From an uncultured Oscillospiraceae bacterium (GTDB taxonomy: Bacteria > Bacillota > Clostridia > Oscillospirales > Oscillospiraceae), in NCBI GenBank assembly GCA_964617335.1, contig CAZTXG010000002.1:15912-79911 (forward strand): DNA of 64,000 bases, read 5' to 3'. Each line of letters begins with the position of its first letter. Within the stretch, counting starts at the first letter, position 1. Of this stretch, positions 56,177 to 60,446 are shown one piece after another. Position numbers and translations under genes: made by a program. The notes beneath the pieces are model-generated. The model was not told the DNA's origin. It was given only the letters and a program-made list of their open reading frames with translations, and did no database searches.

Positions 56177-58024
56177 CTAAATTTCCCTGTCCTTTTCAGC
56201 ACACATGACGGCAATTTCCATAACCGGCGGCAAAAACTCGTTATAAAGCCCTCGTTTTGTATAGCTAGTGTGCAAAAGCTCGTGGGAAAGCTTGCTGCCC
56301 GGCTCGCCAAGATATTCGGAGTACAGTGCAAGTATATCCGGATTTTCGTGGGACTTGCGCTTTTCCTTGCCTTCGTCCTCCCGGCCTAAAGCCTCTCTGC
56401 GAAGTTTTAAAACCTCTGATATATCTGTTTCGCAGGTGGATTTTACCCTTGGCTGACCGCCGCCGTTTATGCAGCCGCCAGGACAGCCCATAATTTCAAC
56501 AAAATGATAAGGGCTTTCTCCGGCCGCAACCTGTTTCATGATGCTATCGGCGCTTTTAAGGCCACTGGCGACGGCAACCTTTGCCTCAACTCCCTCAAGA
56601 TAAGAAAAATCAGGCAGGCAGTCGGCAAATTTAACGGCCCCATGGTAAACACCTTCAAGACCCTCGGCGGGAGTAAGCTTAAGAGCGTTAGGTTCAAGCT
56701 CACGCCCTGTTACAAGTTCGTACACAGTGCGCAGGGCAGCTTCCATAACTCCTCCGGTCATGCCGAAAATATCCGCCGCTCCCGTGGAAAAGCCCAAAGG
56801 CGCGTCAAAGCTACTGTCGGGAAGATTTCTAAAGTCTATGCCCATGGTGCGAATCATCCTTGCAAGCTCACGGGTGGTTATGACAGCGTCCACATTGGGG
56901 GTGTCACGGTTTTGCATTTCGGGGCGGTCAATTTCAAACTTTTTCGCCGTGCAGGGCATAACGGAAACTACAAACATTTTCTCAGGGGGCAGACCGATTT
57001 TGTCCGTGTAATAGCTCTTTATAAGAGCGCCCAGCATAGTGTGGGGAGACTTGCAGGTGGAAAGGTGGGAAAGTTCATTGGGGAAGACGTGTTCAATATG
57101 CTTTATCCAACCCGGCGAGCAGCTTGTTATCATGGGAAGGCTTGCCCCCTTGCCTGTAACAGCATCACGCAGGCGGTGTAAAAGCTCTGTGCCCTCTTCC
57201 ATTATTGTAAGGTCTGCCGCAAAGTTTGTGTCAAAAACATCATCAAAGCCCAAATCTCGCAGGGCTGTTGCAAGCTTTCCTGTTACAAGAGTGCCGGCAG
57301 GCAGGGAAAATTCCTCACCTAAGGCGGCACGAACAGCCGGAGCAACCTGGACAGCCACCCTTATGTTCGGGTCATGAAGGGCATTCCATACCATGTCCAT
57401 TCCGTCGGTTTCCGTAAGAGCTCCCGTGGGACAGACAAGGGTGCACTGACCGCACATGGCGCAGTGGACACTTTCCAAAGGCATTCCCAAAGGCGGTGAG
57501 ATAACTGTGTTAAAGCCGCGGCTTTGTCCGCTTATTGCGCCCACACCCTGAACATTAGTGCAAACTGTGACACAGCGGCGGCAGAGTATGCACTTTCTTG
57601 TATCACGGGTTATGGAAGGGCTTATATCAAGCCTTGCAGGCCCTGCCTCGCCGTGGAAGTGGGTTTCCAAAATGCCCAAGGTGTTTCCAAGCTCCTGAAG
57701 CTCACAGCTAAGGTTTCTTGAGCAGGCCGTACACTCTTTGGGGTGGTTTGAAAGCATAAGATCATAAAGAACCTTTCGTGCCGAACGCACTTTTTCCGTG
57801 TTTGTGCGGACAACCATGCCCTCTTGAGCCTTAACTATGCATGAGGCCAAAAGGTTTTTTGCCCCTTCCACCTCAACAACACAGATGCGGCAGGAGCCGT
57901 GGGCATGAACCCCATGGAGATGGCAGAGTGTGGGTATGGTAATTCCGGAGAGCTTTGCGGCCTCAAGAATTGTGGAGCCTTCCGGCGCCGAGACCTTTTT
58001 TCCGTTTATTGTAAGTTCTATCAT
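56177..58024 (-). CDS. hydA: [FeFe]-hydrogenase catalytic subunit (HydA of a HydABC-type complex) with an atypical L1 motif
   Basis: ATG at 58024 after GAGGGAGG. N-terminal 2Fe-2S domain, a His-ligated cluster (HPKECTACSRNLSC) and two ferredoxin motifs. H-cluster motifs are TSCSPGW (canonical TSCCPxW), MPCTAKKFE and EIMGCPGGCINGGGQP. Confidence 0.85.
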   Translation of the reverse strand: MIELTINGKKVSAPEGSTILEAAKLSGITIPTLCHLHGVHAHGSCRICVVEVEGAKNLLASCIVKAQEGMVVRTNTEKVRSARKVLYDLMLSNHPKECTACSRNLSCELQELGNTLGILETHFHGEAGPARLDISPSITRDTRKCILCRRCVTVCTNVQGVGAISGQSRGFNTVISPPLGMPLESVHCAMCGQCTLVCPTGALTETDGMDMVWNALHDPNIRVAVQVAPAVRAALGEEFSLPAGTLVTGKLATALRDLGFDDVFDTNFAADLTIMEEGTELLHRLRDAVTGKGASLPMITSCSPGWIKHIEHVFPNELSHLSTCKSPHTMLGALIKSYYTDKIGLPPEKMFVVSVMPCTAKKFEIDRPEMQNRDTPNVDAVITTRELARMIRTMGIDFRNLPDSSFDAPLGFSTGAADIFGMTGGVMEAALRTVYELVTGRELEPNALKLTPAEGLEGVYHGAVKFADCLPDFSYLEGVEAKVAVASGLKSADSIMKQVAAGESPYHFVEIMGCPGGCINGGGQPRVKSTCETDISEVLKLRREALGREDEGKEKRKSHENPDILALYSEYLGEPGSKLSHELLHTSYTKRGLYNEFLPPVMEIAVMCAEKDREI

Positions 58025-58038
58025 AATTTTTTCCTCCC

Positions 58039-59907
58039 TCAGCAAAGCTCTACGGCATCGAAGCGGCAAACAAGCCGGCAGCTGCCGCATTTTATGCACA
58101 ATTCACTGTCAATCAGATGCGGGAGCTTCTTTTCGCCGCTTATGGCGGCAACGGGACACTTCTGGATACAGGCTCCGCAGCCTCGACACTTGTCGGCATT
58201 TATATGATAGCTGCAAAGGTCAAGGCAAATATGAGCAGGACAGGTTTTGTCAACTATATGAGCCTCATACTCGTCCCTGAAGTACCTAAGAGTTGTTAAA
58301 ACGGGGTTTGGCGCTGTTTGTCCCAGGCCGCACATAGAGGTGAGCTTCACCGTTCTTGCAAGGGTTTCAAGGTCGTCCAAGTCTGAAGGCTCCCCTTGCC
58401 CCGAGGTTATTTTTATAAGAAGCTCCAGCATACGCTTTGTTCCGTTTCGGCAGGGCAGGCAGTGGCCGCAGCTCTCGTCCTGAACAAACTCCATGAAATA
58501 ACGGGCAGTGTCAACAAGGCAGGTGTCCTCGTCCATTACTATAAGGCCGCCCGAACCTATGATGGCACCGGCTGCTGCAAGACTTTCATAGTCAACAGAG
58601 GTGTCAAGATGCTGGAAAGTCAGACAGCCGCCGGAGGGGCCGCCGGACTGAACGGCCTTAAAGGCCTTATCATCTTTTATGCCGCCGCCTATTTTATAAA
58701 TAATATCCCGCAGGGTGGTTCCCATGGGAATTTCTATGATGCCGGAGTTTTTAATGTCTCCCGCCAAGGCAAAGACCTTTGTTCCAAGGCTTTTTCCGAC
58801 ACCGTAGGAAGAAAACCACTCTGGCCCGTTTAAGATGATGGCAGGAACGTTTGCCAGAGTTTCCACGTTGTTTATTATTGTCGGGCAGTCCCAAAGACCC
58901 CTTTGGAAGGGGAAGGGAGGCTTTTGCCGAGGCTCGCCTCTTTGACCTTCTATGGAGTTTATAAGAGCTGTTTCCTCGCCGCAGACAAAGGCTCCCGCGC
59001 CTATGCGAATTTCAATGTCGAAGTCAAAGCCGGAGGAGAGAATGTTCTTACCCAAAAGCCCCACAGAGCGGGCCGCGTTTAGGGCCTCGCTCAGCCGCTC
59101 TATGGCAAGGGGGTATTCCGCGCGCACATAGACATAGCCCATATCGGCACCTATAACATAGCCGCCAATGGTCATAGCCTCCACTATGCTGTGGGGGTCG
59201 CCCTCAAGGATGCTCCTGTCCATAAAAGCTCCGGGGTCGCCCTCGTCGGCGTTGCAGATTATGTATTTTTGCTTGCCCTCCTGGCGCATTCCTGCCTGCC
59301 ACTTTACCCCAAGGGGGAAGCCGGCGCCGCCCCGGCCCCGCAGGCCGGAGTCTATAAGCTGCTTTGTGGTTTCTTCCCTTCCCAGCTCATGCAAAACCTT
59401 GGAAAGGGCAAAGTAACCGTCATGACCTATGTAGTCTTCAATTGAAGAAAAGTCAATTCTGCCGCAGTTTCTAAGGGCAATTTTAACCTGGTCGGAGAAA
59501 AAGCCAATGTCTTTCATATAGGGCTGGTAGGCTCCTGTCTCCTCGTCAAAATAGCAAAACTCCTCAACAATGCGGCCGCCTATAAGGTGCCTGTCCACTA
59601 TCATTTTAACTTTTTCCGGTGTAAGCTTGCCGTAAAAAACTCCTTCCGGCTCAACAACCATGCAGGGGCCTTGAGCGCAAAGACCTATACAGCCTGTAAG
59701 CACCATGGAAACCTCCGAGGCAAGACCCCGCAAAGCCATGGCTTTTTTCATGGCGTTTACGATGTCGGCACAGTGGGAGGAGGTGCAGCCGCCTCCGCCG
59801 CAGACATATACAGTGTGGCGGAAGTCAGAGTTTGCGTCTATAAAATTCTGGCGCAGCTCCTCAAGCTCTGCTTGGTTTTTTATGTTTAAAGTGTAAATTG
59901 CGCTCAT
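58039..59907 (-). CDS. hydB: NuoF-like NAD(P)H/FMN/Fe-S subunit of bifurcating-type hydrogenase (HydB/HndC)
   Basis: 622 aa. N-terminal thioredoxin-like 2Fe-2S domain (VCGGGGCTSSHC...GLCAQGP), GRGGAGFPLGVKW, ESCGHCLPCRNG, and two C-terminal CxxCxxCxxxCP motifs. Confidence 0.9.
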   Translation of the reverse strand: MSAIYTLNIKNQAELEELRQNFIDANSDFRHTVYVCGGGGCTSSHCADIVNAMKKAMALRGLASEVSMVLTGCIGLCAQGPCMVVEPEGVFYGKLTPEKVKMIVDRHLIGGRIVEEFCYFDEETGAYQPYMKDIGFFSDQVKIALRNCGRIDFSSIEDYIGHDGYFALSKVLHELGREETTKQLIDSGLRGRGGAGFPLGVKWQAGMRQEGKQKYIICNADEGDPGAFMDRSILEGDPHSIVEAMTIGGYVIGADMGYVYVRAEYPLAIERLSEALNAARSVGLLGKNILSSGFDFDIEIRIGAGAFVCGEETALINSIEGQRGEPRQKPPFPFQRGLWDCPTIINNVETLANVPAIILNGPEWFSSYGVGKSLGTKVFALAGDIKNSGIIEIPMGTTLRDIIYKIGGGIKDDKAFKAVQSGGPSGGCLTFQHLDTSVDYESLAAAGAIIGSGGLIVMDEDTCLVDTARYFMEFVQDESCGHCLPCRNGTKRMLELLIKITSGQGEPSDLDDLETLARTVKLTSMCGLGQTAPNPVLTTLRYFRDEYEAHIVDKTCPAHICLDLCSYHINADKCRGCGACIQKCPVAAISGEKKLPHLIDSELCIKCGSCRLVCRFDAVELC

Positions 59908-60446
59908 ACAAGCTCACCTCCCTCATCTGACTTATTTTCTTTCTCATACCACTCGGCAAAAATTGCCGGCAGTCTTTCCGGAGTAACCGCCGGATAAACA
60001 ACAGCGTCAATAGTCATGGCAGGGGCAAGGCCGCAGGCTCCTATACAGCGGGCAATCTCAAAGGTAAACATACCGTCGGCAGTTGTGCGGCCGACTTTTA
60101 CATTAAGCTCGTTTTGTATGGCGTCGGAGATGGAAACCCCTCCCCGAACATAACAGGCCGTTCCAAGACAGACACGGATGGTGTGGCGCCCGCGAGGCTC
60201 CGTTGTAAAAAACGAATAAAAGCTTACAACCCCCGAAACAGTTGACAGGGGAAGTTCAAGCTCTGTTGCCACTATCTGTTGAACCTCAAGGGGAAGGTGG
60301 CCGTAAATACCCTGAACCATGTGCAGAACCTGAATAAGGCTGCCTTGCTTACTTCTGCCGTCCGCGGAAATTTGGCGGATACGTTCCAGTACATAGGCAT
60401 CGGCAGCTTCGACAGTGTCACAGCACTGTCCGGTCTTATTGTTCAT
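59904..60446 (-). CDS. hydC: NuoE-like 2Fe-2S subunit of hydrogenase (HydC/HndA)
   Basis: 180 aa. CLGTACYVRGG...ARCIGACGLAPAM. GAGGAGG RBS. ATGA-type overlap with hydB. Confidence 0.9.
   Translation of the reverse strand: MNNKTGQCCDTVEAADAYVLERIRQISADGRSKQGSLIQVLHMVQGIYGHLPLEVQQIVATELELPLSTVSGVVSFYSFFTTEPRGRHTIRVCLGTACYVRGGVSISDAIQNELNVKVGRTTADGMFTFEIARCIGACGLAPAMTIDAVVYPAVTPERLPAIFAEWYEKENKSDEGGELV

Follow-up and report, generated by a model that had tools for sequence, protein, structure and literature searches.

A serine at the first cubane-ligand position of an Oscillospiraceae HydA is part of the standard L1 motif of group A6 [FeFe]-hydrogenases

Introduction

Among the enzymes of solved structure, HydA1 of the electron-bifurcating HydABC(D) hydrogenase of Acetobacterium woodii (7Q4V/7Q4W/8A5E) is the best relative of the HydA subunit described here, with 50.1% identity over 571 columns (7q4v_A, E 3.5e-176). 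In A. woodii HydA1 Ser301 replaces a cysteine ligand of the cubane and was described as a ligand itself, an assignment made from cryo-EM maps whose resolution is limited (Katsyv et al., 2023; PMC10021017). In the same study both A. woodii HydABC and the Thermoanaerobacter kivui enzyme were active, with similar activities and a typical H-cluster, and the A. woodii enzyme gave normal FTIR signatures. A. woodii HydABC is a normal bidirectional hydrogenase. A very different outcome is known for the engineered C115S variant of Chlamydomonas HydA1, which lost the cubane and all activity, in a study that also found serine at this position in ~20% of the sequences analysed (Kertess et al., 2017; PMC5855289). 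The TSCSPGW form of motif L1 has been noted as well in the confurcating-type HydA of Melainabacteria (Di Rienzi et al., 2013; PMC3787301), although in the trimeric hydrogenases of Melainabacteria ACD20 both proteins also lose an L3 cysteine, while L3 is intact in the protein that we analyse here.

This protein is encoded in a stretch of 64,000 nucleotides from an uncultured Oscillospiraceae bacterium (the window). An earlier note on this DNA had singled out its L1, TSCSPGW instead of TSCCPxW, as an unusual variant in an otherwise normal hydCBA operon, and had listed serine ligation, a register shift, a compensating cysteine and a sensory enzyme as possible explanations. Here we compare the locus with the described enzymes and weigh these possibilities against each other.

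The hydCBA operon

The three genes are adjacent and on the minus strand, in the order hydC-hydB-hydA with hydA last:

56177..58024, minus strand: hydA, 615 aa; group A (NCBIfam 'A6') [FeFe]-hydrogenase catalytic subunit of M3-type architecture
58039..59907, minus strand: hydB, 622 aa; NuoF-like FMN/NAD(H) subunit with an N-terminal [2Fe-2S] and a C-terminal 2x[4Fe-4S] ferredoxin domain
59904..60446, minus strand: hydC, 180 aa; NuoE-like thioredoxin-fold [2Fe-2S] subunit

The operon is intact, so that this part of the earlier description stands, and no hydD lies beside it. A contiguous set of NuoE-like, NuoF-like and HydA genes marks the electron-bifurcating HydABC complexes of the A. woodii/T. 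kivui/T. maritima type, and this is the set found here. HydB contains Complex1_51K, SLBB, NADH_4Fe-4S, 2Fe-2S_thioredx (30-105) and two Fer4 domains (568-620) in Pfam and matches A. woodii HydB over its full length (7q4v_B, E 1e-237); HydC is a 2Fe-2S_thioredx protein (E 1.5e-45) and, among solved structures, comes closest to A. woodii HydC (7q4v_C, E 1.2e-39). The A. woodii subunits are thus the best or near-best solved relatives of both. A second hydCBA paralogue, on another contig of the same genome, also has TSCSPGW as its L1.

HydA starts with MIELTINGKK, preceded by an RBS-like gagggagg. It passes the model NF040763 ('NADH-dependent [FeFe] hydrogenase, group A6'), whose 571 profile positions it covers from end to end, at 832.5 bits (cut-off 765), and also the group A model TIGR02512 (495.7 against 405.95); the group B model is not passed. 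The Pfam domains (Fer2_4, NADH-G_4Fe-4S_3, Fer4_Nqo3/Fer4, Fe_hyd_lg_C and Fe_hyd_SSU) correspond to the accessory set of M3-type enzymes, namely 2Fe-2S, His-ligated 4Fe-4S, 2x4Fe-4S and a small-subunit-like C-terminus, with motifs L1, L2 and L3 all present; Pfam reveals no PAS or other signalling domain. The AlphaFold model, which is cofactor-free, has a mean pLDDT of 73, falling below 50 in the accessory-cluster domain and standing at 68, a moderate confidence, in the L1 block (residues 301-310). A Foldseek search with this model confirmed the fold, with 8a6t_A and 7q4w_A as top matches. Fold and architecture are common to HydA, T. kivui HydA (8A6T) and Clostridium pasteurianum CpI (e.g. 4XDC, 3C8Y), at a Foldseek TMq of 0.64-0.65, and phmmer gave E-values of 1.5e-171 for T. 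kivui HydA and ~5e-132 for CpI. The gene is under strong purifying selection (dN/dS of 0.043 against the ortholog in a sister genome, at dS 0.57; the within-genus median is 0.10).

Motif L1 and the active site

The residues of the H-cluster site and the proton path lie in the following motifs:

57107..57127, minus strand: motif L1, TSCSPGW (T300 S301 C302 S303 P304 G305 W306), codons aca agc tgc tcg ccg ggt tgg
57119..57121, minus strand: Cys302 (tgc) of L1, aligned with CpI C299, the proton-relay cysteine; retained
57116..57118, minus strand: Ser303 (tcg) of L1, equivalent to CpI C300, T. kivui C299 and A. woodii S301, the first [4Fe-4S] ligand of the H-cluster
57044..57064, minus strand: LSTCKSP, with Ser322 (CpI S319, proton path) and Cys324 (tgc, 57053-57055; CpI A321)
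57182..57205, minus strand: IMEEGTEL, carrying the proton-transfer Glu residues E276, E277 and E280, which do not vary among relatives
56933..56959, minus strand: motif L2, MPCTAKKFE, with the ligand Cys358, Met356 and Lys361
56450..56497, minus strand: motif L3, EIMGCPGGCINGGGQP, with the ligand Cys514, the bridging ligand Cys518 and Met512

The codons of L1 on the minus strand and the other motifs are exactly as first read, with coordinates verified. The placement of a serine at the ligand position with the relay cysteine kept is likewise borne out by the alignment to CpI, which puts C302 on C299 and S303 on C300 and in which the proline and tryptophan of L1 align gap-free. Cys302 is invariant in 48 homologues and in 77/77 order-level sequences. 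It belongs to a larger set of retained residues that show little or no variation among relatives: C302 as the relay cysteine, E276/E277/E280, R284 and S322 for the Glu-Ser-Glu-Arg proton path, and P229, M356, K361, F420-G421 and M512 for the diiron pocket (Pro, Met, Lys, Phe-Gly, Met).

A. woodii HydA1 shares the domain order of the window HydA, has an identical L1 (LPMITSCSPGWI) and likewise carries the cysteine of S-x-C-KSP. Compared with it, the window HydA is longer by ~11 residues within the H-domain (~445-475), carries a C-terminal tail of 24 residues, and has His for Gln after KSP and Gly for Ala before the first L3 cysteine. T. kivui HydA and CpI have the same L2, L3 and proton path, but they carry TSCCP, with four cysteine ligands, and an alanine in S-x-A-K/R-SP.

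By the textbook criterion of four cysteines around the cubane, with TSCCP in L1, the window HydA falls short, having three cysteines and Ser303. A. woodii HydA1 and all of the closest homologues considered below fall short in the same way. This criterion is too narrow for the A6 clade, and it does not exclude the window HydA from membership.

Distribution of the TSCSP motif

The motif proved to be anything but rare. TSCSPGW is present in 121/121 of the closest homologues (64-96% identity). TSCSP is read at all but one of 80 loci taken from named genomes across many phyla, and in 75 of 79 sampled genomes of the same order. Among representatives of clusters at 50% identity, 27 are of TSCSP type and 97 of TSCCP type, i.e. 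22% have the serine. TSCSP is already known from the literature and is the usual form of L1 throughout NCBIfam group A6, a very large clade. On the H-domain tree the Ser/Cys state switches 15 times in the best topology, and at least 7 times if only well-supported branches are counted. Five serine codons (TCG, TCA, TCT, TCC and AGC) are in use at the S303 site among 94 relatives. The notion of an anomaly has to be dropped, since the motif is both clade-wide and present in the biochemically active A. woodii enzyme, which is just the situation that the earlier note had named as speaking against it.

Serine ligation and its alternatives

Taken together, the analysis argues strongly for an ordinary HydA, the catalytic subunit of an [FeFe]-hydrogenase of group A6 that is HydABC-type and linked to NAD(H) and ferredoxin, and in which Ser303 very probably replaces the first cubane ligand. 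The remaining ligands, Cys358, Cys514 and the bridging Cys518, are kept, as are the Cys302 proton relay, the Glu/Ser path and the diiron-pocket residues. Ser303 would then do the same job as Ser301 of A. woodii, and the change between TSCSP and TSCCP would be a tolerated swap of little consequence, repeated within the group A hydrogenases. Of the explanations first listed, serine ligation is the one that the depositors of the A. woodii HydABC structures reported for the identical motif.

A ligand swap, in which Cys324 of LSTCKSP serves as the fourth cubane thiolate and Ser303 is a bystander, has in its favour that Cys324 is invariant in 48 close homologues and in 39/39 maturase-less order-level sequences, sits two residues after the proton-path serine and has a counterpart in A. 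woodii HydA1. The wider comparison makes it very unlikely. A cysteine occupies the site in 54/97 (56%) of the TSCCP representatives, which already have four cysteine ligands, and conversely the site is Ala or Thr in 7/27, a quarter, of the TSCSP representatives. On the tree, independent pairs give no sign that the two positions are coupled (median p = 1), and no other alignment column holds a TSCSP-specific cysteine, the best reaching 3/18. The A. woodii depositors, moreover, name Ser301 as the ligand (PMC10021017). A cysteine that compensates for Ser303 was rejected on the strength of contingency counts, independent pairs and the scan of all columns.

Less probable still is a register shift, in which Cys302 ligates the cubane at the cost of the proton relay and leaves a slow, sensor-like or attenuated hydrogenase. 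Nothing specific speaks for it, formally allowed as it is by the sequence alone, apart from the presence in the same genome of a separate, PAS-less HydS-like sensor gene adjoining a PP2C phosphatase. The gap-free alignment of the L1 proline and tryptophan to CpI, the pass with the A6 but not the group B model, and the position of the window HydA behind a full NuoE/NuoF-like electron-input module all point the other way. Measured against the sensory groups C and D (HydS), the protein has no PAS or signalling domain and keeps its relay cysteine, and the Glu/Ser path and pocket residues are conserved as well. Finally, A. woodii HydABC shares the motif and yet has typical H-cluster states, and its activity is similar to that of the TSCCP enzyme of T. 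kivui (PMC10021017).

A tcg codon that arose from faulty sequencing or assembly is hardly credible even for a 93-contig draft genome, and a base-call error can in practice be excluded because tcg is two substitutions away from tgc/tgt, the sister-genome ortholog also has serine, as do the paralogue on another contig and the closest homologues, and relatives use five synonymous codons.

Absence of known maturases

A complete H-cluster in the window HydA is an assumption, because the genome is without known maturases. At 98% completeness it has no match over the cut-offs for HydE, HydF and HydG (TIGR03955, TIGR03956 and TIGR03918), and tblastn and profile searches built from the maturases of relatives were negative in this genome as well. 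It also contains no HypD, HypF or [NiFe] large subunit, so that a replacement of HydG by hypFCDE does not apply to it. This is a feature of the lineage: hydE, hydF and hydG are all missing in 26/30 genomes of the genus, and in a sample of the order hydE and hydG are missing in 62 of 113 genomes that bear hydA. In these lineages, then, hydCBA is under strong purifying selection and all H-cluster pocket residues are intact, yet the known maturases are gone.

We considered TSCSP as a marker of maturase loss and rejected it, as the motif occurs in 36/40 maturase-positive and 39/39 maturase-negative genomes (Fisher p = 0.12). No pocket residue differs between the two sets, and the best association of any column with maturase status, at position 344 (p = 2.5e-5), becomes borderline once multiple testing is allowed for and is confounded by phylogeny. 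The three hyd loci have no alternative maturase candidates beside them. Their neighbours comprise Rex, a PP2C phosphatase, a GntR regulator, a nucleotidyl transferase, a GltD-like oxidoreductase, an amidohydrolase-like ORF, a RarA-like ATPase and parts of an ABC transporter; the HydS-like gene mentioned above lies elsewhere in the genome, in a cluster of the order Rex - HydS-like - PP2C - group B.

For archaea, Giardia and Entamoeba there are proposals of diiron assembly independent of HydEFG; a literature search on maturase-less Clostridia found nothing. It may well be that a novel route without HydEFG supplies the diiron subcluster in these Clostridia, or else that their HydABC works without the diiron subcluster, in a role other than H2 turnover.

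Discussion

The comparison leaves a contrast between natural and engineered serine variants. The C115S mutation of Chlamydomonas HydA1 likewise puts serine for cysteine at the ligand site that Ser303 occupies, but it yields an inactive protein, unlike the natural TSCSP clade, which is conserved and, in A. woodii, active. Since C115S kills Chlamydomonas HydA1, the natural TSCSP scaffolds must differ from HydA1 in some way. What lets them accept a serine ligand that wrecks Chlamydomonas HydA1, and does the serine tune the potential of the cubane? These are the questions that the motif now raises, and they concern TSCSP enzymes in general more than this one locus.

For annotation, TSCSP provides no ground for flagging a defect or for calling a HydA non-catalytic. 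An L1 consensus of TSCCPxW misses about one fifth of the clusters of group A enzymes and, within this order, almost every enzyme of HydABC type.

The observation on maturases may matter more than the L1 motif. If the hydrogenases of these organisms are active, the puzzle of maturase-free maturation would extend from archaea and protists to common Clostridia; if they are inactive, gene-based surveys of H2 production would be counting too many producers.

Serine at the cubane-ligand position of HydA

The hydrogenase gene at issue is read from the minus strand, as follows (window coordinates):

58024 to 56177, minus strand: hydA ORF, 615 aa, containing the L1 motif TSCSPGW
57127 to 57107, minus strand: L1 motif TSCSPGW, codons aca agc tgc tcg ccg ggt tgg

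Translation starts at the ATG at 58024, 14 nt downstream of the hydB stop and 8 nt past a Shine-Dalgarno-like gagggagg (58028-58035), giving the N-terminus MIELTINGKK. A GTG at 58099 within hydB, taken as the start in the automatic ORF list, was rejected since gagggagg precedes the ATG, which is also favoured because the NCBIfam profile alignment begins at HydA residue 2. The earlier note had read H-cluster motif L1 as TSCSPGW, with serine where a cubane ligand is expected from the textbook TSCCP. This is confirmed as written, because the codons spell TSCSPGW and a gap-free alignment with the Clostridium pasteurianum hydrogenase (CpI) places Cys302 on C299 (proton relay) and Ser303 on C300 (cubane ligand); a preprint assigns identical roles to CpI C299 and C300. 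The other elements named there, IMEEGTEL, LSTCKSP, L2 MPCTAKKFE and L3 EIMGCPGGCINGGGQP, were all located at verified coordinates. A sequencing error at tcg can be dismissed, as two substitutions separate this codon from both Cys codons and the Ser codon varies across 94 relatives (TCG 37, TCA 22, TCT 19, TCC 11, AGC 5).

A bifurcating-type hydCBA operon

HydA has the M3 architecture (Fer2_4, His-type 4Fe-4S, 2x4Fe-4S, Fe_hyd_lg_C and Fe_hyd_SSU domains) and passes the profile NF040763, 'NADH-dependent [FeFe] hydrogenase, group A6', scoring 832.5 bits (cut-off 765). Its neighbours are:

Directly upstream of hydA, minus strand: hydB, NuoF-like, with N-terminal thioredoxin-like 2Fe-2S and C-terminal 4Fe-4S motif pair
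Directly upstream, with hydB, minus strand: hydC, NuoE-like

One solved relative of hydB is A. woodii HydB, matched over its full length (7q4v_B, E 1e-237), and the best match to hydC among solved relatives is A. woodii HydC (7q4v_C). The locus has the make-up of a standard hydCBA operon, of the predicted electron-bifurcating type. The AlphaFold model of HydA has a mean pLDDT of 73, with most of the H-domain at 85-95, and its top structural matches are T. kivui HydA, A. woodii HydA and CpI. HydA of the window type carries a 24-residue C-terminal tail past the family profile (56177-56248) and, at about residues 445-475, an H-domain insertion of ~11-16 residues relative to A. woodii HydA1 and the genus-wide paralogue, common to homologues at 64-96% identity.

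A second complete operon lies on another contig of the same genome, and its HydA reads TSCSPGW and VSSCKSP:

G000:C1:194960-199135 (contig 1 of the source genome; locus L005 4461-8635): second hydC-hydB-hydA operon

This second copy is the version common to nearly all genus genomes, while the window's copy was found in the source genome and one sister genome only. The window H-domain and its sister-genome ortholog differ by dN 0.024 and dS 0.569 (dN/dS 0.043), and for the genus-wide HydA paralogue 151 pairs give a median dN/dS of 0.10.

TSCSP is the ordinary motif of the clade

In the PDB, HydA is matched best by A. woodii HydA1 (7Q4V/7Q4W/8A5E; 50.1% identity over 571 columns, E 3.5e-176), whose chain reads LPMITSCSPGWI and HLSSCKSP, so that both the serine and the extra cysteine are as in the window protein. 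T. kivui HydA and CpI, in contrast, have TSCCP, with alanine at the extra-Cys site. The A. woodii and T. kivui complexes are both active, with a typical H-cluster (Katsyv et al., 2023; PMC10021017). Of the putative hydrogenase sequences, ~20% have serine at the L1 ligand position (Kertess et al., 2017; PMC5855289), and TSCSPGW was noted in Melainabacteria (Di Rienzi et al., 2013; PMC3787301).

The motif is TSCSPGW in 121/121 of the closest database homologues (64-96% identity), and among the best 149 cluster representatives at 50% identity, aligned to the window HydA, the L1 pair is Cys-Cys in 97 and Cys-Ser in 27, the 22% of serine agreeing with the published ~20% (PMC5855289). TSCSP is found in 79 of the best 80 loci of named genomes, which come from Oscillospiraceae, Lachnospiraceae, Christensenellaceae, Peptococcaceae, Bacteroidales, Prolixibacteraceae, Planctomycetota, Verrucomicrobiota, Spirochaetota, Syntrophus and Smithella, and include the isolates Faecalicatena contorta ET51 and Clostridium sp. 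C105KSO13. Within the window's order, Oscillospirales, 75 of the 79 genomes sampled have TSCSPGW in their best group A HydA. In a FastTree phylogeny of 136 H-domains, with the motif columns taken out, the window HydA sits inside a fully supported all-Ser clade. The best tree requires 15 changes of the Ser/Cys state, and well-supported branches force at least 7 of them; as the tree is weakly resolved, the count is to be read as a minimum, not as a history. This phylogeny shows repeated interchange of serine and cysteine at the ligand site.

TSCSPGW is thus real, conserved and widespread, and an active enzyme of solved structure has already been described with it. The suggestion that it is an anomaly does not hold, since among active group A hydrogenases it is common and probably neutral; TSCSP is the ordinary, already known L1 of this clade.

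Role of Ser303

The best-supported reading is that Ser303 itself would ligate the cubane, as in the A. woodii depositors' interpretation of their cryo-EM maps; it was one of several options raised earlier, and is preferred because a compensating cysteine is rejected and several facts speak against a register shift or a sensory role. A caveat to this reading is that in Chlamydomonas HydA1 the engineered equivalent of Ser303, C115S, loses the cubane (Kertess et al., 2017; PMC5855289).

A compensating cysteine in LSTCKSP is rejected on three counts. Of the canonical TSCCP representatives, 54/97 have cysteine at the S-x-C-K-S-P site, and 7/27 of those with TSCSP have Ala or Thr there instead; no coupling between this cysteine and TSCSP was detected across phylogenetically independent pairs (median p = 1); and a scan of the other alignment columns found no TSCSP-specific cysteine (best 3/18). 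In the same column scan, the residue preceding the first L3 cysteine was Ala in 75/90 TSCCP proteins vs 7/18 TSCSP proteins (otherwise Gly, Cys or Thr). Since A. woodii keeps Ala, the non-Ala residue would be at most a tendency of TSCSP proteins.

A register shift or a sensory role fits poorly with the relay cysteine, the Glu/Ser/Arg path and all pocket residues, which are conserved. Both are further disfavoured by the lack of a signalling domain in HydA and by the normal behaviour of the A. woodii enzyme with TSCSPGW, and the sensor-type gene of this genome sits elsewhere:

G000:C1:124600-129900 (locus L112 5603-10902): hfs-like regulatory cluster of Rex-type redox repressor, HydS-like protein, SpoIIE/PP2C phosphatase and group-B-like hydrogenase

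The HydS-like protein combines a ferredoxin domain, Fe_hyd_lg_C with ISSCCPTV and a PF04060 FeS domain, and the group-B-like hydrogenase reads TSSCCPAF. This cluster may resemble modules for putative H2 sensing in Ruminococcus albus and Thermoanaerobacterium.

Most genus genomes also have a divergent Fe_hyd_lg_C gene of ~445 aa (105-130 bits, profile positions 21-244), ~6 kb away from the main hydA and on the other strand, which was not detected in the source genome. Examples from three genus relatives are:

G018:C90:19094-19756
G008:C6:126523-127185
G010:C1:3216388-3217050

Maturases in the genus and the order

The source genome is 98.1% complete with 0.08% contamination. Profile searches of it for the H-cluster maturases, run to probe function, found no HydG or HydE and, for HydF, generic GTPases only (≤88 bits vs a cut-off of 325). 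Tblastn with the three maturases of same-order relatives was negative, as were HMMs built from the same maturases against all 5697 six-frame ORFs, where the top 'HydF' match was a double-GTPase, Der-like ORF. HypD, HypF and the [NiFe] large subunit are all absent from the genome. All 30 genus genomes carry 1-6 Fe_hyd_lg_C genes each; HydE and HydF occur together in the same four only, HydG in one of these four, and the remaining 26, among them near-closed assemblies (2 and 8 contigs) and one genome scored 100% complete, have none of the three.

We extended the search, for HydE and HydG only, to 121 high-quality genomes from 82 genera of the order. Group A HydA is present in 113, HydE in 57 and HydG in 53, while neither maturase is found in 62 of the 113 genomes with HydA. 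Every HydG-positive genome is also HydE-positive, a perfect nesting that speaks against random assembly loss. HydA in maturase-less genomes is under strong purifying selection (dN/dS ~0.04-0.10) and, at 22 H-cluster pocket positions, indistinguishable from that of maturase-bearing ones. The loss is not tied to serine, because TSCSP is found in 36/40 maturase-positive and 39/39 maturase-negative genomes (Fisher p = 0.12). The absence of maturases is a matter of the whole genome and its relatives and not of the TSCSP motif.

The literature searched yielded no report of maturase-less hydrogenase-bearing Clostridia. Archaea present the same puzzle: Greening and co-workers (Cell, 2024; PMC11216029) found the full maturase set in only 5/130 archaeal genomes, refer to Giardia and Entamoeba, and put forward an alternative route of maturation. 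That this Oscillospiraceae lineage lacks the maturases merits a separate look.
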